In this document: one piece after another, positions 43,801-56,522 of the stretch
Position numbering within the stretch: the stretch's first letter is position 1
How the letters are laid out: each line of letters begins with the position of its first letter
DNA from: Chiloscyllium plagiosum
Lineage: Eukaryota
DNA: 64,000 bases
Assembly (NCBI RefSeq): GCF_004010195.1
Contig: NC_057718.1
Coordinates: forward strand, 56,492,174-56,556,173
Reading direction: 5' to 3'
The notes under the pieces: model-generated
Told to the model about the DNA's origin: nothing
The model's database searches: none
Seen by the model: only the letters and a program-made list of their open reading frames with translations
Made by a program: the position numbers and the translations under genes

Positions 43801-44693
43801 CTGCCAATCAAAAGTACAGGATGAAAATAGCAATATAGAGCATAGCAATTCAGTTTTTCACAAAAAAATCTAGTAAGGTTGTTGATCCATTTTTCATAGA
43901 GTTATCAAGATGGAAAATTCTCTCAAATGCTGCAATTATGTGGGATGTGAGCTACTGACACACACCATCTTAAAAAAAGTTTTGCTTTAATGACCTAGGG
44001 TCTAGTCTAAGATTTTAAAGTAGGAGTTACATTGACAGATTTATATGGTATTCCATGGGTGATCTGATTGTGGGGATACTGAGACCAAAGAATAGAGCCC
44101 AATTACAATGTAATCAAAGCAGAAAGTGGCTTGAAGGTAAAACCATCAGGAAGGGAAAGGACATTAAGAATAATTTGGAGTGAGGAAACTGCTATGGAGG
44201 CCAAAAGTAACAGATGAAGATAAAGGCTCTCTATAGTCAATAATATTACAAATTAGAAGGCACAGAGCAACAGACGCAATTTATGTCAACTACTTTGTGC
44301 AGAATTGATGATTGGGATATAATTACATGAATTCCGTCAAGCTTTTTCTATATTTCTGCCCAAACTCACTTGCATATCACCAAACACAACATGTACAAAC
44401 ACAACTGCCCAGACTTCTCAATGCAGTTCAAACAAACAAACAAACATAATTCATGCTATTTAACTATAGAAAGCACATCATCCAAGTTCATTACCACGTC
44501 ACTGACATCCTGCCTTCTCAATGGCTTCCTTTTCTATCAATCAGGGAGGATCGGCATGACTGCATTTGCTAAACCTGCTCAATGTCATCATGTTCTGCAT
44601 TATCAGGTCAGTAGTAGTGTAGTCCATGGCATCTACACTACCAACGCTACCTGGAACGATGGTGGCAACTGTGGTCCCTTCTCAATTCCCACC

Positions 44694-45428
44694 TGCAAGT
44701 GGGCATCAGAGCCGCCCCGCATTTGCCATGGGACTATGCCTACATCGGTAAAACTATAGGAATTCATTTTGTGTTTTAAAAACGGCAGCCACAGCTTAAA
44801 GCCACAGAACTGAGCAGCTGCCGGTCCGCCCACATGACCGGGTGATGGGAGCCAGAGGACAGATCAAATCCACGCTAGGCCAGACACTAACCATGACTCA
44901 TAGACCGAAACTCCGGAGCTAATTAATATGGAAACCCATCTCCTAATCAAATCAAGAGACTGACTGAAACACACCCATATTCATCAATACAGAACCATCC
45001 TGACACAAAGAACAGGCATCCACCAGACAGGAACGAACAGACTAATACACACCAGCACCCCAAGGGAACAAAGGGGGGGTGCCAGCCCCCAGCCCTCACA
45101 GAGAGAGACAAGCAGATAGTACCCGAACCCTGTTTACATAATCCAATTAGCACCCTATTGTGTGTACACGGCAACTCTCCTGGGACGGAAGGAAACCCAC
45201 CATTTGCACCTACTCCAGCAATGATGGGGAACTATCATTCCATTCATACTCAAAATCCTCACATCCTGACAAAGAAAGGTATATAATGTGTAGCAGCACG
45301 CGGGAACAGCAGAACAGCCGAGATTCGGACCTCGGTTGGTCTCCGCCTGTGTCACTGTATCAATAAACGTTACTGATTGTTGAACCGCACTCTGGGCTCG
45401 GACTGATATCATTTCATCCGCGCTAACA
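44694..45428 (+). repeat. ERV 5' LTR (735 bp, TG...CA)
   Basis: Direct repeat of 53791-54524; TATATAA at 45280-45286; AATAAA at 45362-45367. Confidence 0.95.
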
Positions 45429-45430
45429 AT

Positions 45431-45449
45431 TGGGGGCTTCGTCCTGGTT
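45431..45449 (+). promoter_or_regulatory. Primer-binding site, tRNA-Pro-like
   Basis: TGGGGGCTTCGTCCTGGTT lies 2 nt after the 5' LTR; resembles the tRNA-Pro PBS TGGGGGCTCGTCCGGGAT with one insertion and two mismatches. Confidence 0.75.
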
Positions 45450-45480
45450 AACGATGGCTGCTGGATCCCTGCGACGGCAC

Positions 45481-45490
45481 TGGGTGAGTA
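45481..45490 (+). promoter_or_regulatory. ERV major splice donor (TGG|GTGAGT)
   Basis: Consensus donor just downstream of the PBS, the usual position for the env mRNA donor. Confidence 0.65.
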
Positions 45491-46413
45491 TCTTTACTCT
45501 TTTACTTCTCGCGTAAAAGTCTCCCAGTGCCCCGCAAGGGACTTCACTGCCGGCCATTATCTGAACCTGTGAACAGAGTGAGTCCGGCAGTCATATAACG
45601 GTAGAGTACTCTTTAAAAAAGTGTGTTTGTGTGTGTGTGTGTGAGAGAGTGATCCTTCGCGGATGGGCGATTGGGGTCGCGGAACACTCGTAAATGTGTG
45701 CGTGATTATTATTATTGTTGTTTATTGTTAATGTGCTACTGTGACTGACGGACTATCCTTGGACCGACGACTTTAGGTACGAGACCCCGACAGATTGACC
45801 CCCATGTTTAAAAACCGACCAAACAAGCCTTCCTGGTTGACCTCTGCAATGGGAGATAGGGGACCCCATTGTACGTTGAGCCCGGTTTTAGCACCTTCCT
45901 TGCGTACGCGGTAGAGGCTGGGAGGTCTACGCGCGCTACAAGAAGGGAAGTCCTCCAAACCAGCCCGACATGCGGAGCCTCTGGGCCAAACGACGGTTAC
46001 GCGCTCAGCCCATTGACTTCGCGGTCCCAAGGTGTTGGCCTCTGCAGGATCAGGTGCGGTTAGGTCGTGGTGCCGAGGTGTTGGCCTCTGCAGGATCAGG
46101 CGCGGTTAGGTCTGAGTTCACCCCCCCCCCTTGCACTAGGGCCCCTGGTTCACGCCCAGTGTTTGTGGGGTACACACGGCCGCTGAACGTCAGGCGGTGA
46201 GAGAGAGACTCGCGGAAACCTGGGGTCGCGCACTCAGGAATCGACACGCGCCCCGTCTGTAACTATCCCCACCCCTGCCCAGGTTGACCTCCGGGGCTAG
46301 GGTTCGACTTACAGGGAGTGGACTCCCCGACTGGGAGATTAATAAGCTAGTGCCAGCGACATCCCTTAGCACACCTGCTAGCTTTACTTTAGTTTAGCTT
46401 CTGTCAAGTTACC

Positions 46414-47793
46414 ATGGGTGGAAGTGCGGCTGAAGACCTAGATTGGGGGCCGGAGGGTTCCCTTACCCGTTTTATAGCCGACGAGAATAAAAAAAAGTTA
46501 TTAAGGCTATGCTTCGCTCAGGCTGGCGACCCGCTGGATGTACAGCGCAAGTGGTGGGCCCGCCAGAAGAAAGATAGGTACGAGAAAGCTTGCGTCCTGG
46601 TGCTACAGGCACACATTAAAGCTGAACCTTGCCAGCAAGCCTATGTCCAAGACAAGAAAAAACAGGCCACAGAGCACCTAGAAGCCCAGGCGCTTGCTGC
46701 CCGTACGGTTTTACCGACCTTATCCGATGCGCCCAGCGCCCCGCCGTCCCCCACCTGGGACTGGGAGGGGCTCACGGACAATCCGGACCCCCGGGAATCG
46801 CGCACGGGCTATGCCCGTGCAGCCCTGATGAAAGTTGAATATACCCCCGGGGGAGGGGACGGGCCACAACCCTTGCCCATAACCCCCGCCTTAAGATGAC
46901 CTACGTCTCCCTGACCCCGGGGGACACCATGAAACTTCTGGACAGGCTCCCTGGCCCTTAAGCCTCGGCACAATAACGCTGAATTTCGGCAGAGGCTTAG
47001 GGAGATGCAGATCTGCCACAACCTTCACAATAGGGACGTGGCCGGCCTGGTCCGGACCAAACTCCCGGAGAACCTGTGGTCCAGGCTCCAGCCCGTGCAC
47101 CAGAATGGGTCCTGGTGCGCTGACCTCAGCGACAGCAATCGCGAACAGGAGGTTGCCCTCGCCGACTTCAAGGCTGATGTCAGCAAGGCGCTCGGCCATA
47201 CACCGGTTGACTGGAACGCCATTGTGGGTATCACTCAGAAACCTGGGGAAGCCCAGGAATATGGGGTCCGCAAGTTTGAGGCGTTCCGAGCCCACAGCGG
47301 GGTTCCCGACACTGATAGGCAGAACCCCGCATTCGTCCAATTATACAAAGACGGCCTGAGCCCCGCACACCAGGCAGTCCTATGGATGGGCCTGATGCCC
47401 TATGTCACCTTTGCGGAGCTAGAGAACTGGGCCATGTCCCTTGACAACCGAGCGGCGCCCGCCGTTGCGGCAGTTTCGACGGATGTTACGACAGTTTCGA
47501 CGGATGAACCGGACGTTTGCTTCCGCTGCAAACGGACGGGGCACCGCAAAGCCCAATGCCCACTCTCTTTCCGACTCCCCTGGGGTCCGGGTCCGAAGGG
47601 GGACCAGCCACCTTCACAGCCGCACTCCTCGCGCCCCCACGACCAGGATCGCCCCAGACAAGGGGTCAACAGCGACCCCAGCCCCCACAAACCTCGCAGC
47701 CCAAGCCCGAAACCCACCACCCTCGACTGGGATCAACTCAGTCAGGACCAGCTGCTCGAGCTTTTACAGCTGCTCGCCTGACGCAAAGACTGA
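46414..47793 (+). pseudogene. gag: ERV gag (MA-CA-NC) with two compensating frameshifts near 46890 and 46953
   Basis: accATGG start, MGGS N-terminus (Gly2), PSAP late-domain motif 46732-46743, CCHC knuckle CFRCKRTGHRKAQC 47518-47559; stops at 47779 and 47791. Confidence 0.85.
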
Positions 47794-50700
47794 GTAGCGT
47801 CGGCCCCCGTCCCGGGAGCCGACCCCCGTATCTGGGTTTCCGCATCGCTAGGGGGCTGCCGATGCAAGATTTTGATTGATACGGGGGTGTCGGTCTCCCT
47901 CACCGACCTCGACCTTCCCTCAACCCACCACTCCATTTCCATTAAAAAGGGTTGGGGGAAGCTCGGTTGTTGCACGCCGAAGTGAGGCCATCCTTCTAGA
48001 GGTAGACAACATTTTACTCCCCGTGCATTTCTGGGTTTGCCCAAACTCTGAGGGGATGATTATGGGTATCGACCTTCTGGGCGAACTGGGGGCGGTGGTG
48101 GACGCGTCCACCACCGCCTCCTGTGGACATCCCGCAAATTTCACAAGAGCGCCCACGAGGGTAGATGGGTGCCCACTAAATCCATCGCTGCACTTGCCCC
48201 CAGTATGCCCATCGCCCGGGACTGGGCCAAGGACGGTGCCTTCGGGGCCTTCTGCCAACTAGTCCCGGAGGTGTGGGCCACAAGCAAGCAGGACTGCGGC
48301 CTCGTCTGCTCCCCTCCTGTGCGGATATCTGGCCCCACACACGCCCCGCACCGACAATACCCGATTACACCTGAGGCGCTGCGCGCCACTGAGGCAATCG
48401 TTGCCGAGCTCACCCGGCACAGCGTCCTGCGCCCCACGGTGTCCACCACCAACTCCCCTATATGGCCAGTCCGGAAGCCGGATGGGAGCTACAGGCTCAC
48501 CATCGACTACACGGCACTCAATAGGGTCACCCCCAAAGAGCACCCTATCATAGCCAGCCTGACCACCATCTTCAACGGCCTCGAACCCTCACACCGGATC
48601 TTAACGGTCCTGGACGTGGCGAATGGCTTTTGGTCCATTCCCCTGCACCGTGACTCACAGGACAAGTTTGCCTTCACGCTGCAGGACAGACAGTATACAT
48701 GGACCCGCCTGCCGCAGGGCTTCCACAACAACCCTAACATTTTCCACAGGGTCATGAGCCGGACCCTGTAGGGGTGCGACCTCTCCCCCTTCTCGAGCAC
48801 CCTCCTACAGTATGTAGACGACCTTTTGATCGAGTCCACGGACGCGCGCCACCACCTGGGAGCCCTGGTCGCCGTCCGCGGACCCTCGGCCGGGCAGGTT
48901 TCAAAATAAGCCCCACAAAGGCCCAGGTCGGACTGGCTAAAGTCCGGTACCTGGGACATGACATCAGCCAGGGAAGCAAGACCCTAGCCATTGCCGACAT
49001 GCCACGGCCGGACACAGTCAGGGGAATCTGCCGCGTCTTGGGGCTTTTTAACTACTGCCGCTCTTTCATTGCACATTTTGCCACTATCGCCGAACCCATT
49101 CAGCGCCTAGTGAAGGGGGGCAGGCCAGGAGCGGAGAGGTAAGGGGACCCGAACAGGACGACGCTTATTCTAAGAGGAGAAAGTGAGGGCTGCAGATGCT
49201 GGAGATCAGAGCTGAAAATGTGTTGCTGGAAAAGCGCAGCAGGTCAGGCAGCATCCAAGGAACAGGAGAATCGACGTTTCGGGCATAAGCCCTTCTTCAG
49301 GCTTATGCCCGAAAAGTCGATTCTCCTGTTCCTTGGATGCTGCCTGACCTGCTGCGCTTTTCCAGCAACACATTTTCAGCGACGCTTATTCTAAGTTAAA
49401 GTCCCATCTCCTCAGCGTCCCGGCCCTGTGCCTCCCCGACCTATCAAAGCCCTTCCACATCTTTTACGGCCTCGAAGGGGGGTTTTACAGCGCTGTTGTC
49501 ACCCAAACCTCAGGTGACCACATGAGACCAGTGGGTTACTACTCCACAAAGGAGTCCCTGGTCGTGAAGGACATGCACCGCTGCGTGGCGGCGCTGGATT
49601 GCGCTGCACGGGCGGTCCGGGTGTGAGAGTCGGTCACCATGTCCGGCCAGATAATTTTACACACTAGACACACTATAGTCGAACTCCTGAATATGGGCTG
49701 CCTCCGGACGGACTCGGATGCCCGCAGGGCAACATGGGAGGTGGTTCTCCTCCCCTGGGACCAGTCCATTCAGATCGTTAGGGACACAGGGCCAAACCCC
49801 GCCAACGGGATTATCGCGGTAGGGGAACCCCACCATTGCCAGGCTGCCATCGACTCGGCGGAGGGGGACTGCATGGCCGACAGCCCGGTCCCTGATCCCG
49901 ACCTGACCTTGTATGTGGACGGCTCACGTAGGCTTGTCGAGGGGTCCTACCAAACGGGATGGGCAGTGGTCGACCATACCAGGACCACCTGAGCACAGGG
50001 AACGATGGGAGGGGTGACACCTCCGCCCAAGTCGCGGAGCTGGTCGCCCTCACCGCCGCACTCCGCCTGGGAACAGGCAAGCGGGTAAACATCTTTACCG
50101 ACAGCCAGTACGCTTTCAGGGTAGTCCATGATTACATGGCAGCGTGGAACCGCCAGGGTTTTATTACGGCCGGCGGTGGCCAGATTAAACACGGAAATAT
50201 GGTCCGTGACCTGGTGGCGGCCGCATGGTGAAAATCAAAGCACACCAACAGGCCACCACTGTTGAACAGCTAGGGAATTATTGGGCCGACCTGGCCGCCA
50301 AGGCCGCCGTGGGCGCGGCGCTACCGCCCGCGCATGCAGCACCGGCTACTGAGGTCCGGGACTGAACGTCCTGGACGTCCAGAATTGCGCACAGCCCGGA
50401 GAGGTAGAGGACTGGCTGGCAAAGGGCGCAGCCCGCGACCCCGATGGAGTGTGGCGGCACGGCGGCAGGGTCGTGGCCCCCGCGGCCATCAGAACGACCT
50501 TGATGCAACTACACCACGAGCCAGACCACACGGGCCACGATGGAACACTTGCTAGGCTCCAGACCGACTGGTGGTAGCCCGGCCTCGACCGCGATGTGGC
50601 CAAACACTGCCGCCGATGCGTTGTCTGCGCCCAGCACAACCCAGGGCGGCCCCTGCGCATTCCCCTGGCGCACCAGCCATGGCCCAAGGGGCCCTGGGAG

Positions 50701-51184
50701 AACCTCCAGGTTGATTTCACAGGCCCCCTACCCTCCAACAGTGGCAAGATGTATTTCCTGGTGATCGTTTACCATTTCACGCGCTGGGTAGAAGCCTTTC
50801 CTACACGGGACTGTACATCCGCCACCATGGCCAGAGTGCTGGCCTTCGACATCTTCCCGTGCTGGGGGATCCCCCTCCAGATTGACTCGGACTAGGGCAC
50901 GCACTTCACCGGACGCGCAATGAAACTGGCCTGCCGCCTCCGAGGCATCAGACAGCGCTTCCACGTCCCGTTCCATCCCTAGAGCTCCGGGATGGTTGAG
51001 TGCATGAACCGGACCCTTAAAGCGGCGATCGCGAAGGCGATTGCCGATACAGGGCAGGGCTGGGTGGACGTTCTGCCCTGCATACTGATGCGCTTAAGGA
51101 CCACCCCGGGCCGCTCCACTGGCCTCACTCCCTTCAAGCTCATGACGGGGAGGGCCATGCGACTACCAGAGAACGTCATGGTCG
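47794..51184 (+). pseudogene. pol: ERV pro-pol: protease, RT, connection/tether, RNase H, integrase; several stops and frameshifts; runs into an assembly gap
   Basis: ILIDTG (DTG 47878-47886), GIDLL; LDVANGFWS, LPQGF, YVDD (48811-48822); YVDGS, SAQVAEL, TDSQY RNase H; HHCC, QVDFTG, DSD*G, GMVE integrase motifs. Confidence 0.93.
49175..49380. mobile_element. Penelope-like terminal fragment inserted as an inverted dimer into ERV pol
   Basis: ~81 bp inverted arms (49211-49291, 49300-49380); TSD GACGCTTATTCTAAG (49160-49174, 49381-49395); same sequence as the PLE ends at 20119-20245 and 24115-24240. Confidence 0.85.
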
Positions 51185-51413
51185 NNNNNNNNNNNNNNNN
51201 NNNNNNNNNNNNNNNNNNNNNNNNNNNNNNNNNNNNNNNNNNNNNNNNNNNNNNNNNNNNNNNNNNNNNNNNNNNNNNNNNNNNNNNNNNNNNNNNNNNN
51301 NNNNNNNNNNNNNNNNNNNNNNNNNNNNNNNNNNNNNNNNNNNNNNNNNNNNNNNNNNNNNNNNNNNNNNNNNNNNNNNNNNNNNNNNNNNNNNNNNNNN
51401 NNNNNNNNNNNNN
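51185..51413. other. Assembly gap (229 N) inside the ERV, between integrase and env
   Basis: Run of N. Confidence 1.
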
Positions 51414-51428
51414 CCAACCTTTGACTTG

Positions 51429-51458
51429 ACTCTAACCGCCTCCTTTTTCTCCTTACAG
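51429..51458 (+). promoter_or_regulatory. Candidate env splice acceptor 1
   Basis: CTCTAAC branch-like motif, pyrimidine tract, TTACAG; ATG at 51463. Confidence 0.55.
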
Positions 51459-51524
51459 AGCGATGGGCGGACCGGTCCGGGGGGGTCTGCTCCTACACAC
51501 ACTAACCCTACACCCTTGTGTAGG

Positions 51525-51555
51525 GTCCCCTCTCTCTCTCCCTCTCTTCCCACAG
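51525..51555 (+). promoter_or_regulatory. Candidate env splice acceptor 2
   Basis: Long C/T tract ending CACAG; ATG at 51559 opens a signal-peptide-like sequence. Confidence 0.6.
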
Positions 51556-51558
51556 ATC

Positions 51559-53655
51559 ATGCTTCACCGGTGCACCGCTCTCCTCTTCGCCCTACGACTG
51601 ATGCCTTCTTTCCCCGAGATACATGACAACTTCTACCGCCACGGTGTTGCCTTCAACGCGTCTGACGCCATCTGTATTCCTCCAAGGGACAAGCCCGACA
51701 AGATCGACGCATTCTACAAGGCCTGGCTGGAGGTCCTCCCGGGCGTACAGACACTCTGTTTATTCTGCACGTCGGAGCGCGACCCCACGGCCGACCTGCC
51801 TCCGGCGTGCTGAGGCGATGGACTTGGGGGGTTGCATGTTCGGGACAATGTGTGCCATGCCGGAGGACCTCGCCTCTGCCCCGGCCTTTGATGCTTTTAC
51901 TTTACGGGATCTGTCTGTTTGGGGGTATTATGAGCCCACCAATGCCACGGTAATCTCCTTGTATTTGTGCTTTCCACCCGCCCCAAACACACCATCGACC
52001 ACAACTCCCGAGATATTGCCGTGCCCCTCTCTGGGACTAGGGCCCGCGGGGGGAACTGGTATTGTGGGATGAGGGAGAGGCCCTTTATGACAACGTCCGA
52101 CATGAGGTCGTACCTGTGCTGGTCAATATATCGGGCATCCAGGTACCGGACTATTGCACAGCACAGGTACGCAACCTATACGCCATGATGGGGAAGGAGG
52201 TTATAGAGAGGGCCATAGATGCCATGGGGGCAACCCACTACCGGACCGACATACATAACACACACACACAACGACACAGACGAGACATAGTCAACGATGC
52301 TCTCACAGGACTCAACATGGGGACATCCGTAGTAAACTCCCTAGACATTCAGGGCCTTAACGAAAAAAATCGAGCAACTAAAAGGGGTAATGAGGGACCT
52401 GCTACAAAGGTCTCTCACAGATCAGGCAGACCAGGCATTCTTGGGGGAAGAGGGAGCATACATCCAGCTCGATGGCATTGCAATCCTGGAAACACACGCC
52501 CACACCATTAACCACCTTATAGACCGGGAAAGAGAAAACACAGCCCATATCCATGAGGGGCATATGGCCTGTTGATGGTAGCCCAGATCCGGCATAATCT
52601 TGACCAGGTCCAAAGGGGGGAGGTGCCCGACTGGATCGACAGCGCCAAACTGGCCTCACTTGCGAGGCGCTCCGGGCCGCTCGACAGCCGGACTCTGAAG
52701 GGTATGACCAGAGTATACCCAGTGATTCCCGACTGTGAGGTCAGTGAGGTGACAGGAGTCGGGATTGTCCTCCTGATCCCCGTGGTCACCCCAGGGTCTG
52801 GGCCATTTCCCCTGTTTCACATTGAGAACATTGGAGTCATACGGGAAAACGCTTCCCTCAAATATCGTTTAGCTCACCACACAGCCATATCTCGAAACGG
52901 CGCTGTGTATGGGGTGCCGCTTACAGGCTGCAAGCGGCAGGGGGCAATTACCATCTGCCCTCACCCCTTACGAAGGAGTGAAACAGCGGAATGCGGGTTC
53001 AACCGGACACAGAGCTGCACCCTGGAAATCGAACCCACGGGCCCCCACTTCACTAGGGTGGGGTATGGTGGAAGGGGACAGTATTGTGTTTCCACTCTTG
53101 AAACCTCATTTTGGTATAACGGACTGCAGTGCCCGATTCCCCAGCACGAGTTCTGCTTCACCCCCAGGCGCCCAGTCACGATTGGACAAGCTCACATCTC
53201 AGAGGTCCGACGACGGAACCCCGAGTCCATACAAACTACCGACAAATTCAGGGACACCCTCAGGGAATATCAGGAGCCCGAACAAGCCCCCATCCCACAT
53301 TTGGCCGAGGTCTTACGGGAGCTTAGGACCCGGGTACAGCACTCAGTGAAACTGTACTACCAGTTGCAATCACATATAAAGGACCTAGGGGAGAACACAG
53401 AGACAGCTCTGCAGTCCCAGGGCTGGGCACAGAGAGTGTGGGATTGGGGCCTAAACGCCCATACATCCCTGGATCCGAATCATCTCGCACACCATTGTAG
53501 GCATACAGTTACTGCTGGCTCTGGCCTGGTTCCTGGTGGCGTGTCACTCATGCCGTCAGCACAAGAAACGAACGGCCAGAAAGACCATGCTCCACGCCAT
53601 AGACTCCTGGCGGGTGATCAGGCACCACGAGCTCACAGGGCTCGAGTTAATGTAA
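51559..53655 (+). pseudogene. env: ERV env, class I fusion glycoprotein, about 5 frameshifts
   Basis: Signal-like MLHRCTALLFALRLMP; N-glycosylation sequons (NAS, NAT, NIS, NRT); furin site RHRR 52272-52283; fusion-peptide/heptad region; Cys-rich ectodomain (ORF 52572..); frameshifted TM IISHTIVGIQLLLALAWFLVAC; basic tail; TAA 53653-53655. Confidence 0.85.
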
Positions 53656-53778
53656 TCATCTCCCGGGACTATCCAAAGGCCCCATGACTGCTGTATGACG
53701 GCCGGCAGAATGTACCGGGCGAGGAACCGACTTTCAAGGTATCGGCATCGGGGGTGTGGATGTGTCCAACCTCTTGCC

Positions 53779-53790
53779 GAAAGGGGGGAC
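53779..53790 (+). promoter_or_regulatory. Polypurine tract
   Basis: GAAAGGGGGGAC immediately before the 3' LTR. Confidence 0.85.
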
Positions 53791-54524
53791 TACAAGCGGG
53801 CATCAGACCTGCCCCGCATTTGCCACGGGACTATGCCTACATCGGTAAAACCAAAGGAATTCATTTTGTGTTTTAAAAACGGCAGCCGCAGCTTAAACCC
53901 ACAGAACTCGGCAGCTGCCGGTCCCCCCACGTGACTGAGAGATGGGAGCCAGAGGACAGATCAAATCCACACTAGGCCAGACACTAACCATGACTCATAG
54001 ACTGAAACTCCGGAGCTAATTAATATGGAAACCCATCTCCTAATCAAATCAAGAGACTGACTGAAACACACCCATATTCATCAATACAGAACCATCCTGA
54101 CACAAAGGACAGGCATCCACCAGACAGGAACGAACAGACTAATACACACCAGCACCCCAAGGGAACAAAGGGGGGGTGCTAGACCCCAGCCCTCACAGAG
54201 AGAGACAAGCAGATAGTACCCGGACCCGTTTACATAATCCAATTAGCACCCTATTGTGTGTACACGGCAACTCTCCTGGGACGGCAGGAAACCCACCATT
54301 TGCACCTACTCCAGCGATGATGGGGAACTATCATCCCATTCATACTCAAAATCCTCCCAAGCTGACAAAGAAAGGTATATAATGTGTAGCAGCGCGCGGG
54401 AACAACAGAACAGCCGAGATTCGGACCTCGGTTGGTCTCCGCCGGTGTTATTGTATCAGTAAACGTTACCGATTGTTGAACAGCACTCTGGGCTTGGACT
54501 GATATCATTTCATCCGCGCTAACA
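53791..54524 (+). repeat. ERV 3' LTR (734 bp; starts TA instead of TG, ends CA)
   Basis: About 37 substitutions and 1 indel versus the 5' LTR by hand count; preceded by the PPT; polyA signal reads AGTAAA (54458-54463). Confidence 0.95.
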
Positions 54525-56041
54525 CACCTCAATCTCATTCTGAAATATGGTTTGATGGAAGGAGCAGGAGCAGATGGCGTGACCATGGTTCTTCCGCTTT
54601 CCATCAGAATTGCCACTTACCTCGGTTCAAGCCTCCCCTTATAGATCCAAATTCCCTAGAGGTTTTGGTTGCACAGCTTCAGGTCAGCTAGGATTAAGAG
54701 GAAGAGAAACTGCATGGCAGTGGTGAATAGTGACCATCACTTGATCTGATACTCCCAGTCATTGCAGGTACCAGTACTGCATGAACTTCAGAGCGTAATC
54801 TTGAATCAGGATCTGTATTATTTAATCAATGGGCAAGACTAGACTACAGCCAGGTGGTGAAAAGAGGGTGAACTTTGCCAAATCTCCAAAGGGTAAGGTA
54901 ACAAATGTTATGATGTTGCAAAGAGCTCAGATAAAGATTATAAAAGGGCAACATAAAATGGAATGCAGATGATAGTGGACAAAATTATGTTTGAGGTTTT
55001 ACTGTCAAAGAGCATAGCGGAATCAGGCTCCAGTGTGACAGAGCTTAGGATCTACCCTTTCCAATGTCTATATGGCGACAGCCAATTCCATAGTAGCACT
55101 AGTGCACCAGCCCTTGGAGCAATTCCATTGCAACATAAGATCACCATGGATGCAGATCTCAGTGCTCAAACAGGTCTGTATACTTTAACAGTAGCAGCAA
55201 TCTGTCCTTTAGCAAATTACTAAGATTGATGAGCTGCCACCATGTGAGAGCAGTGACAAAGTGACCTCAATATGAAGACATTCGCGGTACCTGATGTCCC
55301 GTAACCTCTCAATCAGCCAAAACTGCTCTACCCATGGTAAGGTGGTGCAATCTGAATCTAGGTTCTCAAAGCCTAAAGATGCTTAACAGCATCATTTCAG
55401 GTCATTCACAACTGCCCATGCACAAAGTCAAAGTCAGCAGAGTTTCACAGACATATAATCACAGAGATAGCACAGTATAGGAGCAACCATACCTCCAAGA
55501 CAAGCATGAGCTATTGTTGATGCAAATAGATGGCGTTGTAGGATAAAGATGCTTGATGCAGATTTGTGTTTGTCCTTTGTTTAATTAATTTATTGAAAAA
55601 GTGGGAATTGTTGGCTAGGTCAGCATTTATTGCCCACCCCTAGCTGCCTTTGAGAAGGCGATGGTGAGCGGTTTTCTTGAAGTGCTGTGATCCAATTGGT
55701 GCAGGTACACCCACAACTCCATGTAAGATGGAGTTTCAGGATTTTAATACGCAGACTCCGAACTAATAGACATATAATTCCAAGTCTGGATGGTGAGTAG
55801 TTTGGAAGAGTTCTGGCAGGTGGTAATGTTCCCATGTTTCCTCCACTTTGAACCTTCTGACAGTAGTGTTTATAGGTTAGGAAGCACTGTCTAAGGAGCC
55901 TTGGCGAATTAGATAAGTGCATCTTGTAGATAGTGCATATTCGTGCTACCGTGTGCTGGTGTTGGAAGAAGTTAATATTTCTGGATGCAGTGCCAGACAA
56001 GTGGCTGCTTTGTTCTGGATGGTGTCAAGTCTCTGAATGCT

Positions 56042-56522
56042 AGATTCTAGATTCCCTACAGTGTGGAAACAGGCCCTTCGGCCCAACAAGTCCACACTGA
56101 CCCTCTGAAGAGTAACCCCATCCAGACACATTTCCCTCTGACTAATGCACCTAACAATATGGGCAATTTAGCATGGCCAATTCACCTGACCTGCACATCT
56201 TTGGACTGTGGGAGGAAACTGGAGCACCCGGAGGAAATCCACGCAGACATGGGGAGAATGTGCAAACTCCACACAGACATTTGCCCGAGGCCTGCCCTTA
56301 AGCCTCGGCACAATAACGCTGAATTTTGGCAGAGGCTTAGGGAGATGCAGATCTGCCACAACCTTCACAATAGGGACGTGGCCGGCCTGGTCCGGACCAA
56401 ACTCCCGGAGAACCTGTGGTCCAGGCTCCAGCCCGTGCACCAGAATGGGTCCTGAGGGAGGAAACCAGAGCACCCAGAGACATTTGCCCGAGGCTGGCAT
56501 CGAACCTGGGACCCTGGTGCTG
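56042..56522 (-). mobile_element. HE1-type V-SINE, rearranged, carrying the gag fragment
   Basis: Reverse complement of the HE1 tail, V-domain and head, interrupted at 56291-56454. Confidence 0.85.
56291..56454 (+). other. 164 bp copy of ERV gag (46950-47114) embedded in a SINE
   Basis: Identical except for 1 substitution and 1 indel. Confidence 0.95.

Follow-up and report, generated by a model that had tools for sequence, protein, structure and literature searches.

Can a retroviral env gene that lacks the hallmarks of the gamma type be placed in another class of fusogens? This question is raised by a decayed provirus of 9.8 kb (44694-54524) in the shark Chiloscyllium plagiosum, which forms the GC-rich block at 44.7-54.5 kb of a 64,000-nucleotide stretch of contig NC_057718.1 (the whole stretch is called the window, and its positions are used throughout). 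A reading made from the letters of the window, hereafter the sequence-only reading, had placed the envelope protein (Env) of this element in the F-like class, the type of foamy virus Env and of the paramyxovirus fusion protein (F), paired with an orthoretrovirus-style Gag. When the fold of an intact homologue was predicted and compared with known structures, F proteins of paramyxoviruses and pneumoviruses were the best matches. As judged from this model, we consider it probable (roughly 0.85) that the Env core has the F-type fold and the domain order of F.

Organization of the env gene

The env gene (about 51559-53655) is a pseudogene, and the stretch described in the sequence-only reading (52040-53655) corresponds to its 3' two thirds. 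When a 376-amino-acid (aa) frame of the gene was used as the query, the shark Mustelus asterias yielded an intact protein of 714 aa (P0001) with 69 % identity over 80 % of the query. The following parts were mapped, in which SU and TM are the surface and transmembrane subunits, HRA and HRB the first and second heptad regions, and pLDDT the predicted local distance difference test score of the model described below.

51559 to 52040, forward strand: signal peptide and N-terminal SU, the latter variable and rich in Cys; frame 1, followed by frame 2 (40-41 % identity to P0001 in tblastn; low pLDDT; variable in alignment A2)
52041 to 52271, forward strand: conserved C-terminal SU, putative F2 counterpart with two strands and a helix (block-mean pLDDT 85-96 in P0001 160-235, with 69 in block 231-240; the model from 174 onward aligns to F from 26 onward)
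52272 to 52283, forward strand: furin-type site RHRR, in frame 0 (aligned with RSKR, RRKR and RDKR of homologues)
52284 to 52569, forward strand: predicted fusion peptide and HRA of TM, with a change from frame 0 to frame 1 near 52345-52350 (66 % identity to P0001 274-347 in frame 1; model helices 249-366)
52557 to 53210, forward strand: beta-rich Cys core of TM, putative equivalent of domains III, I and II in F, in an open frame (P0001 340-565 aligns to F and foamy Env)
53301 to 53414, forward strand: predicted HRB of TM (model helix 596-633, mapped via tblastn)
53424 to 53447, forward strand: aromatic membrane-proximal motif WAQRVWDW (WVQKVWDW in P0001)
53461 to 53655, forward strand: TM anchor, short cytoplasmic tail and stop (53653-53655), in frame 1 after a frame change (55 % identity to P0001 650-696)

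The stretch downstream of RHRR is hydrophobic and rich in Gly, Ser and Asn (DIVNDALTGLNMGTSVVNSLDIQGL). FHIENIG, LTGCKRQGAITIC, ECGFNRTQSC, FTRVGYGGRGQYCV and CPIP are all found within the open frame 52557-53687, and the hydrophobic anchor reads IISHTIVGIQLLLALAWFLVAC. From the residue past RHRR to the stop, TM of the window comprises about 456 codons, and 463 residues follow RSKR in P0001. Thus the furin site, the TM subunit of about 450 residues, the fusion-peptide and heptad region, the Cys-containing block, the second helical region, the WxxxxWxW motif and the anchor, all named in the sequence-only reading, could each be located in the sequence.

The same reading had noted the absence of the gamma-type motifs, and this agrees with our results. 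When the plus frames of 51430-53700 were scanned with regular expressions, CX6CC, LQNRxxLD and QN[RK]xx[LIM]D were not found in any of them. No match was found in the ectodomains of eight homologues either, as the only CX6CC (in P0035) falls in the membrane anchor. The wording of these motifs was taken in part from the sequence-only reading.

In the tblastn alignment of P0001, segments were found at 51580-51777 (frame 1), 51794-52054 (frame 2), about 52041-52350 (frame 0), 52348-52569 (frame 1), 52557-53462 (frame 0) and 53461-53652 (frame 1). Five frame changes therefore occur across env, of which three (near 52345-52350, 52557-52569 and 53461) are located within 52040-53655. Because of the five frame changes, the window copy is dead and unable to make an Env protein. 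It follows that the "reconstructed Env" of the sequence-only reading is correct in its elements but is not a single reading frame; it is a read-through of a pseudogene with three frame changes in that range. The placement of the last frameshift (near 53461) is supported by another copy in the same genome (L011), in which the ectodomain and the anchor are read in a single 280-aa frame ending in ...HELM.

Predicted fold of Env

AlphaFold2 was applied to P0001 as a monomer, and not to the broken gene of the window, with an alignment of 63 rows (A3), many of which are fragments. The mean pLDDT was 34 when P0001 was predicted as a single sequence and 65 with the 63 rows, where 198 residues reached a pLDDT of at least 90. 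Two regions were modelled best, namely 160-235 upstream of the cleavage site and the beta-rich Cys block at 340-565. In both, the means of 10-residue blocks were mostly 79-97, and within 340-565 a single block (68) fell outside this range.

When the model was compared with the PDB using Foldseek, 225 matches were obtained at E-values of 1e-3 or lower. All 39 listed matches are F proteins of paramyxoviruses or pneumoviruses, and the best is F of human parainfluenza virus 3 (hPIV3; E-value 1e-10). In VIA-align, hPIV3 F gave a Z-score of 11.5 and an alignment that pairs residues 174-566 of the model with residues 26-431 of F, and postfusion F of Nipah virus was superposed at 5.5 Å root-mean-square deviation (rmsd) over 286 residues. 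The significant F matches thus span the Cys-rich block, the result that the sequence-only reading had expected from structure prediction and Foldseek if its claim was right.

A scan of 48,161 representative chains, independent of Foldseek, was also carried out. Ranks 1-15 were all F (Z-scores 10.3 to 6.3) or foamy Env, with F at ranks 1-9, and below rank 15 there were short coiled coils only (Z-scores of 5.9 or lower). Foamy Env was represented by 8rm1_D (Z-score 7.8, 307 residues aligned) and 8rm0_A (Z-score 7.1, rmsd 5.7 Å over 274 residues, 14 % identity). Among the predicted viral structures in BFVD, the P0001 model matched arthropod mononegavirus glycoproteins (2e-14), the baculovirus F-type protein Ld130 (8e-11), Env of walleye epidermal hyperplasia virus 1 (WEHV-1; 1.6e-10), parainfluenza F0 (1.3e-9), Env of walleye dermal sarcoma virus (WDSV; 3.2e-9) and feline foamy virus Env (4e-5). 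The language-model neighbours of Env were the Baculo_F, Fusion_gly and Gypsy clusters (0.91-0.93), which is weak evidence as the recognition score was low.

Chains of gamma-type TM, filovirus GP2 and human immunodeficiency virus (HIV) gp41 were absent from the matches listed in the fold searches, which leaves room for a distant helical likeness. The two outcomes named beforehand as contrary to an F-like Env, a best match to a gamma-type or beta-type Env and a lack of likeness to F or foamy Env, did not occur.

Sequence-family tests and points against an F-type core

Support for placing Env in the F-like class comes from the fold (Foldseek E-value 1e-10, Z-score 11.5) and not from sequence families, and several observations weigh against this assignment. 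In the model, pLDDT values are below 50 throughout the N-terminal SU domain and in the HRA region. Full-length alignments gave an rmsd of 18-29 Å, so that only the domains superpose and not the overall conformation. It is also a monomer model with a mean pLDDT of 65, and it represents the homologue P0001 rather than the gene of the window. At the sequence level, no match to PF00523, PF03408 or PF12259 was obtained with the window pieces (E-value up to 1) or with P0001 (E-value up to 10), and none of the 49 family members matched PF00523 or PF03408 at an E-value of 0.01 or lower. When a profile of the family (A1) was compared with the PDB, foamy Env took the top three places on the Cys block, but only with E-values of 0.019-0.038. 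This was not reproduced with profile A2 (9 rows), which gave no foamy Env at E-values up to 10 and coiled-coil noise only.

A sequence-profile link to foamy Env is therefore unproven, and the Pfam comparison that the sequence-only reading had proposed for Env yielded no significant match to F or foamy Env. One of the 49 members matched Baculo_F (E-value 0.0011, below the family cut-off), and this was the only match at 0.01 or lower to PF00523, PF03408, PF12259 or PF00429. The gamma-type family PF00429 (TLV_coat) was not matched by the four env pieces (E-value up to 1), by P0001 (up to 10) or by the 49 members (up to 0.01), and the Pfam results contained no gamma-type or beta-type Env family at E-values up to 10. 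In phmmer searches of the PDB, the 376-aa frame of the window gave a single match (a phage maturation protein, E-value 1.1) and P0001 gave none.

Env homologues in sharks and frogs

When 1.84 billion representative proteins were searched with phmmer, 58 matches were found at an E-value of 1e-3 or lower, 39 at 1e-10 or lower and 15 at 1e-30 or lower. The named homologues belong to sharks (Chiloscyllium punctatum, C. plagiosum, Heterodontus, Scyliorhinus and Pristiophorus, in addition to Mustelus asterias) and frogs (Pelodytes, Mantella, Bombina, Xenopus tropicalis and Lithobates), and all are annotated as uncharacterised. A further search with profile A2 returned only two proteins, and a scan of viral contigs with P0001 gave no match, so that no exogenous relative was found there. 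The genome of C. plagiosum itself (3.56 Gb) contains at least 129 matches with 53-100 % identity; therefore, the provirus belongs to a multi-copy family of endogenous retroviruses (ERVs). With the 58 homologues and the genomic matches taken together, env is more than a chance open reading frame. Integrase, gag or sequence resembling a long terminal repeat (LTR) is present beside env in the five other genome copies examined, in which env could be read only in its 3' part. Runs of N cover most of the proviral interior at loci L011-L015, where the long "open frames" (up to 2244 aa) are artefacts of these runs.

Full-length members share a variable N-terminal region, a conserved "CP...GL...YNNV...PV" segment, a Gly-rich fusion peptide and conserved core cysteines. 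An R-x-K/R-R site is found in most of them, while P0039, P0045, P0087 and P0088 show no strict match. The N-terminal SU domain differs completely among members; it is Ig-like in UniRef in the shark protein P0015, and P0039 has a weak V-set match (E-value 0.045). Since this domain varies while the F-like core is conserved throughout, a swapped receptor-binding module is suggested.

In the frog Mantella aurantiaca, the cluster of P0035 contains 16 members with at least 90 % identity. Thirteen of the 15 listed have 677 aa, and the cluster comes from several chromosome-scale contigs. These proteins point to recent activity of an ERV whose F-like env is intact in this species. In two other members, P0031 and P0044, a piece of Env is joined to host domains, namely an F-box ("fbxo15 isoform X3", Heterodontus) and cadherin repeats (a protein of 1084 aa). 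These fusions are probably artefacts of gene models that run across ERV fragments.

Gag, Pol and the type of the carrier

Upstream of env, two coding regions were identified.

46414 to 47781, forward strand: gag, starting with MGGS, with PSAP and one CCHC knuckle and with two in-frame stops near 46897-46932
47782 to 51184, forward strand: pro-pol in several broken frames, with protease, reverse transcriptase (RT), RNase H and integrase (Pfam and PDB matches)

The gag open reading frames 46393-46899 and 46933-47781 share one frame. The knuckle was recognised as zf-CCHC (Pfam E-value 1.4e-4), no Gag_p30 match was found in the window pieces at an E-value up to 1, and in the PDB Gag matched only zinc knuckles (E-values 0.14-0.97). 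The sequence ITQKPGEAQEYGVRKFEAFR in Gag may be an MLV-like (murine leukemia virus) major homology motif. In three-frame translations, the protease motif LIDTG (DTG at 47878-47886) lies in the gag frame, behind the TGA that ends gag (47779-47781) and a second TGA at 47791. The orthoretrovirus-style Gag of the sequence-only reading is thus borne out by the Met-Gly start, the zf-CCHC match and the position of pro in the gag frame behind stops. A same-frame gag-stop-pol read-through is the gamma/epsilon arrangement, while class II viruses use a frameshift and foamy viruses a separate pol mRNA. The features of the gamma/epsilon organisation (gag and pro-pol in the same frame with a stop between them, an MG start and a Cys-His box) were all found here. 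In foamy viruses, Gag has no Cys-His boxes and Pol is made from its own spliced mRNA.

Pfam matches in pol were RVT_1 (1.7e-15), RNase_H (2e-11) and rve (4.5e-6). When the pol pieces were compared with the PDB, the RT piece matched foamy PR-RT (1e-27) and MLV RT (3e-23) better than HIV (1e-10 to 1e-14) and Ty3 (2e-13). The RNase H piece was closest to MLV and XMRV (4e-14), with no foamy chain among 30 matches at E-values of 0.01 or lower. The integrase piece was closest to prototype foamy virus (PFV) integrase (4.8e-10), a biased comparison because Ty3 was the sole non-foamy chain matched. A language-model atlas placed the RT piece among generic RVT_1 clusters only.

We regard a class I-like simple retrovirus, of the epsilon or snakehead-retrovirus type, as the likely carrier of this env. 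It is favoured because Gag and the gag-stop-pro layout are not foamy-like, and because a published survey of lokiretroviruses and the PF00523 results speak against a lokiretrovirus (see below).

Anatomy of the provirus

The provirus has the order gag, pro-pol, env between two LTRs, with a palindrome and broken frames in pol. The remaining features are as follows.

44690 to 44693 and 54525 to 54528, forward strand: 5' and 3' copies of the 4-bp target-site duplication CACC, read from the LTR flanks
44694 to 45428, forward strand: 5' LTR, TG...CA, aligned to 53790-54524
45431 to 45448, forward strand: primer-binding site TGGGGGCTTCGTCCTGGT, two bases past the 5' LTR
49172 to 49380, no strand assigned: palindromic repeat within pol, non-retroviral, matching itself in reverse at 94 %
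51185 to 51413, no strand assigned: run of 229 N, covering the end of pol directly ahead of env
53779 to 53789, forward strand: polypurine tract AAAGGGGGGA(C), read upstream of the 3' LTR
53791 to 54524, forward strand: 3' LTR, starting with TA rather than TG and ending with CA, aligned to the 5' LTR

The primer-binding site TGGGGGCTTCGTCCTGGT may correspond to a tRNA-Pro site. With the env stop and the 3' LTR only 135 bases apart, there is no space for accessory genes downstream of env. The two LTRs (about 735 bp each) are identical at 698 of 735 positions (95 %; Kimura two-parameter distance 0.052), which corresponds to roughly 12 to 119 million years when the two neutral rates for sharks from PMC4422223 are applied.

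Copies of the pol palindrome (about 210 bp) are found at about 8.0, 18.6-18.8, 20.1-20.2 and 24.1-24.2 kb of the window with 80-96 % identity. A 161-bp piece of gag (46954-47114) recurs at 56294-56454, 1.8 kb downstream of the provirus, with 99 % identity, compared with the 5 % difference between the LTRs. A piece that strayed from a younger copy, gene conversion or an assembly artefact could account for this duplicate.

Comparison with known envelope proteins

The shark Env shares its order of parts (F2 segment, furin site, fusion peptide, HRA, domains III-I-II, HRB and anchor) with F (PF00523; hPIV3 1ztm, respiratory syncytial virus 3rki, Newcastle disease virus 3maw). F proteins are its best structural matches (Foldseek E-value 1e-10, Z-scores 10.3-11.5), although identities in the structural alignments are 8-14 % (VIA) and 10-15 % (Foldseek) and there is no sequence-family match. 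F depends on a separate attachment protein. The shark Env differs from F in an extra domain of about 150 residues ahead of the F2-like part, and it is carried by a retrovirus and not by a negative-strand RNA virus.

Foamy Env gp130 (PF03408; 8rm0, 8rm1, 8ozh) is retroviral and has an F-like fusion core (excerpt of PMC11468914); its postfusion TM was matched with a Z-score of 7.8 and the prefusion form with 7.1. It has about 990 residues and, according to the same excerpt, a leader peptide and a receptor-binding domain (RBD) between HRC and the cleavage site, whereas the shark Env has about 700 residues and an N-terminal variable domain. The foamy layout was not found here: the F2-like segment comes after the variable domain, and in P0001 helix 213-233 and RSKR are only about 15 residues apart. 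The foamy Gag and pro arrangement also differs from that of this provirus. Lokiretrovirus Env, as described in an excerpt of PMC7947760, resembles the shark and frog family in being F-like, in belonging to lower-vertebrate ERVs, in its RXKR site and in its frog hosts. It is recognised by PF00523 (2.2e-7 in the same excerpt), whereas the shark and frog family is not; the two are set apart here by description. The part of the sequence-only reading that F-like Envs occur in foamy viruses and lokiretroviruses is accordingly in print (excerpts of PMC11468914 and PMC7947760).

The Envs of the epsilonretroviruses WDSV and WEHV are orthoretroviral and have no gamma hallmarks (excerpt of PMC9967133). 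Their predicted structures match the P0001 model, WEHV-1 with 1.6e-10 and WDSV with 3.2e-9 as Env polyproteins. They comprise 1159-1317 residues compared with about 700 here, and the longest of the 58 phmmer matches does not exceed 1084, so that none reaches the length of the walleye Envs; the likeness is one of predicted folds. The walleye viruses also have accessory genes, for which this provirus has no room. We found no literature statement that epsilonretrovirus Env is F-like, and the excerpt of PMC9967133 describes the Env encoded by the walleye viruses only as "distinct". The sequence-only reading had assumed short epsilon TM subunits with gamma motifs, a premise that is wrong for exogenous epsilonretroviruses and is contradicted by that excerpt and by the BFVD matches to WEHV-1 and WDSV. 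Because the predicted WEHV-1 and WDSV Envs match the model and the review calls walleye Env distinct, an F-like Env beside an orthoretrovirus Gag is probably not a unique pairing and is less unusual than that reading held.

The F-type structural class also includes baculovirus F (PF12259) and errantivirus/gypsy Env (PF07253), with BFVD matches at 8e-11 to 8e-7 and language-model scores of 0.91-0.92. They are proteins of insect viruses and Ty3/gypsy elements, unlike the vertebrate provirus described here. F-type Envs of gypsy-like elements and baculoviruses are already in print (excerpts of bioRxiv 10.1101/2023.10.26.564294 and PMC12583693), and in the first of these excerpts, a survey of retroelements with F-type Env, no homologue of the invertebrate elements is reported among vertebrate ERVs. 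Gamma-type Env (PF00429) shares with the shark Env the nature of a class I fusogen, the furin site and the fusion peptide at the N-terminus of TM. Its hallmarks, the immunosuppressive domain (ISD), CX6CC and a short TM ectodomain, are absent from the shark Env.

Alternative explanations

Several results point towards foamy viruses. The best PDB matches of RT and integrase are foamy (1e-27 and 4.8e-10), the family profile reached no other solved protein than foamy Env (E-value 0.02), and identity in the structural alignments is highest for foamy Env (13-14 %, compared with 8-12 % for F in the scan of 48,161 chains). A foamy-like class III ERV with a divergent foamy Env would account for these results, but we judge it improbable. 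The CCHC knuckle and MG start of Gag and the position of pro in the gag frame behind a stop speak against it, as does RNase H, which is closest to MLV/XMRV (4e-14) with foamy chains absent from its 30 matches. In addition, PF03408 is not matched, env is roughly 700 codons long and has its variable domain before the F2-like segment (the foamy RBD lies elsewhere; excerpt of PMC11468914), the 135 bases from env to the LTR leave no room for accessory genes, and the integrase comparison is biased, with Ty3 as the only non-foamy chain. A lokiretrovirus, which would be the first record in cartilaginous fish, is quite improbable in our estimate. In lokiretroviruses, Env is F-like and combines a signal peptide with an RXKR site, a fusion peptide, a coiled coil and an anchor (excerpt of PMC7947760), and frogs host lokiretroviruses as well as homologues of the shark Env. 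However, the match of lokiretrovirus Env to PF00523 at 2.2e-7 (same excerpt) contrasts with none of 49 members at 0.01 or lower here. The excerpted supplement of PMC7947760 lists none of six chondrichthyan genomes as positive, including Chiloscyllium punctatum, C. plagiosum and Scyliorhinus torazame, all three of which contain homologues. The RT piece is also far nearer to foamy and MLV RT (1e-27, 3e-23) than to HIV and Ty3 (1e-10 to 1e-14), a weak point as the comparison was made without a lokiretrovirus RT.

Two further explanations concern the env gene itself. It was considered whether Env is a highly diverged gamma-type protein and the F-like model an artefact of a shallow alignment, as the alignment has only 63 rows with many fragments, and gamma-type Env is reported to be ubiquitous in fish and amphibian ERVs (excerpts of PMC12690878 and PMC9967133). 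This is very improbable in view of the absence of an ISD, CX6CC or TLV_coat match, the length of TM (about 460 residues, of which about 220 form a beta-rich core with block-mean pLDDT 79-97 save one of 68), and the absence of gamma-type TM, filovirus GP2 and gp41 chains from the fold matches listed. Paramyxovirus-like endogenous elements have been reported in sharks, fish and amphibians (excerpt of PMC11089739), so the F-like gene might be a fragment of a paramyxovirus-like RNA virus that was endogenised alone beside a retrovirus. We find this scarcely credible, since a provirus with a 4-bp duplication at its borders encloses the gene, which follows pol and precedes the polypurine tract and 3' LTR, and since the other genome copies examined also have integrase, gag or LTR-like sequence beside env.

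Proposed mode of action

On the model of P0001, an F-type Env core in a provirus organised like a simple gamma- or epsilon-type retrovirus is the preferred explanation, and we hold it probable that the intact Env is a class I fusion glycoprotein with F-type architecture. After a signal peptide, such a protein would carry the variable N-terminal domain, about 130-150 residues long and the presumed receptor binder. The conserved F2-equivalent segment and the furin site would come next, and cleavage would yield an SU of about 230 residues and a TM of about 460 residues. In TM, the N-terminal fusion peptide would be followed by the long helix of HRA and by three disulfide-bonded domains that are rich in beta structure and equivalent to F domains III, I and II. 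HRB, the aromatic motif, the anchor and a short tail would complete the subunit.

On the pattern of F and foamy virus Env (excerpt of PMC11468914), the protein may form a metastable trimer. After cleavage and triggering, HRA would extend and the fusion peptide would insert, and HRB would fold back to give a six-helix bundle. The analysis of P0001 shows the fold and the domain order; that the protein trimerises, is cleaved, binds a receptor through its N-terminal domain and drives fusion is what we infer by analogy.

Implications

Three aspects of these results seem to be new: an Env family of sharks and frogs that is not recognised by Pfam, a compact layout with a variable domain ahead of the F2-like segment, and an F-like Env inside a simple provirus with a gag-stop-pol arrangement. 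No description of this shark and frog Env family was found in the literature searched, whose coverage did not extend to probably relevant papers on anamniote Envs and on foamy-like ERVs of cartilaginous fish. An excerpt of a survey of amphibian retroviruses reports only gamma-type Envs outside spumaviruses (PMC12690878). F-like retroviral Envs have so far been described from foamy viruses (structures, 2024) and lokiretroviruses (sequence, 2020), both of which are outside the orthoretroviruses.

The F-like Env described here occurs in sharks and frogs, intact and in multiple copies in some of them, and in the window it accompanies an orthoretrovirus-type Gag in a gag-stop-pro-pol arrangement. 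When the matches to walleye virus Env are considered as well, the F-type fusogen would seem to be distributed across several deep branches of retroviruses. The finding bears on the origin of retroviral env and on the frequency of its exchange with negative-strand RNA viruses, baculoviruses and gypsy-like elements. In addition, it marks "uncharacterized" proteins of sharks and frogs as retroviral fusogens. A more speculative view, which we regard as unlikely though conceivable, is that the shark and frog, WDSV/WEHV, foamy and lokiretrovirus Envs descend from one F-like Env of a common retroviral ancestor, with the gamma type as a later replacement or reduction. If this is true, the element of the window would be a simple orthoretrovirus with a gag-stop-pol layout that has retained the ancestral envelope.

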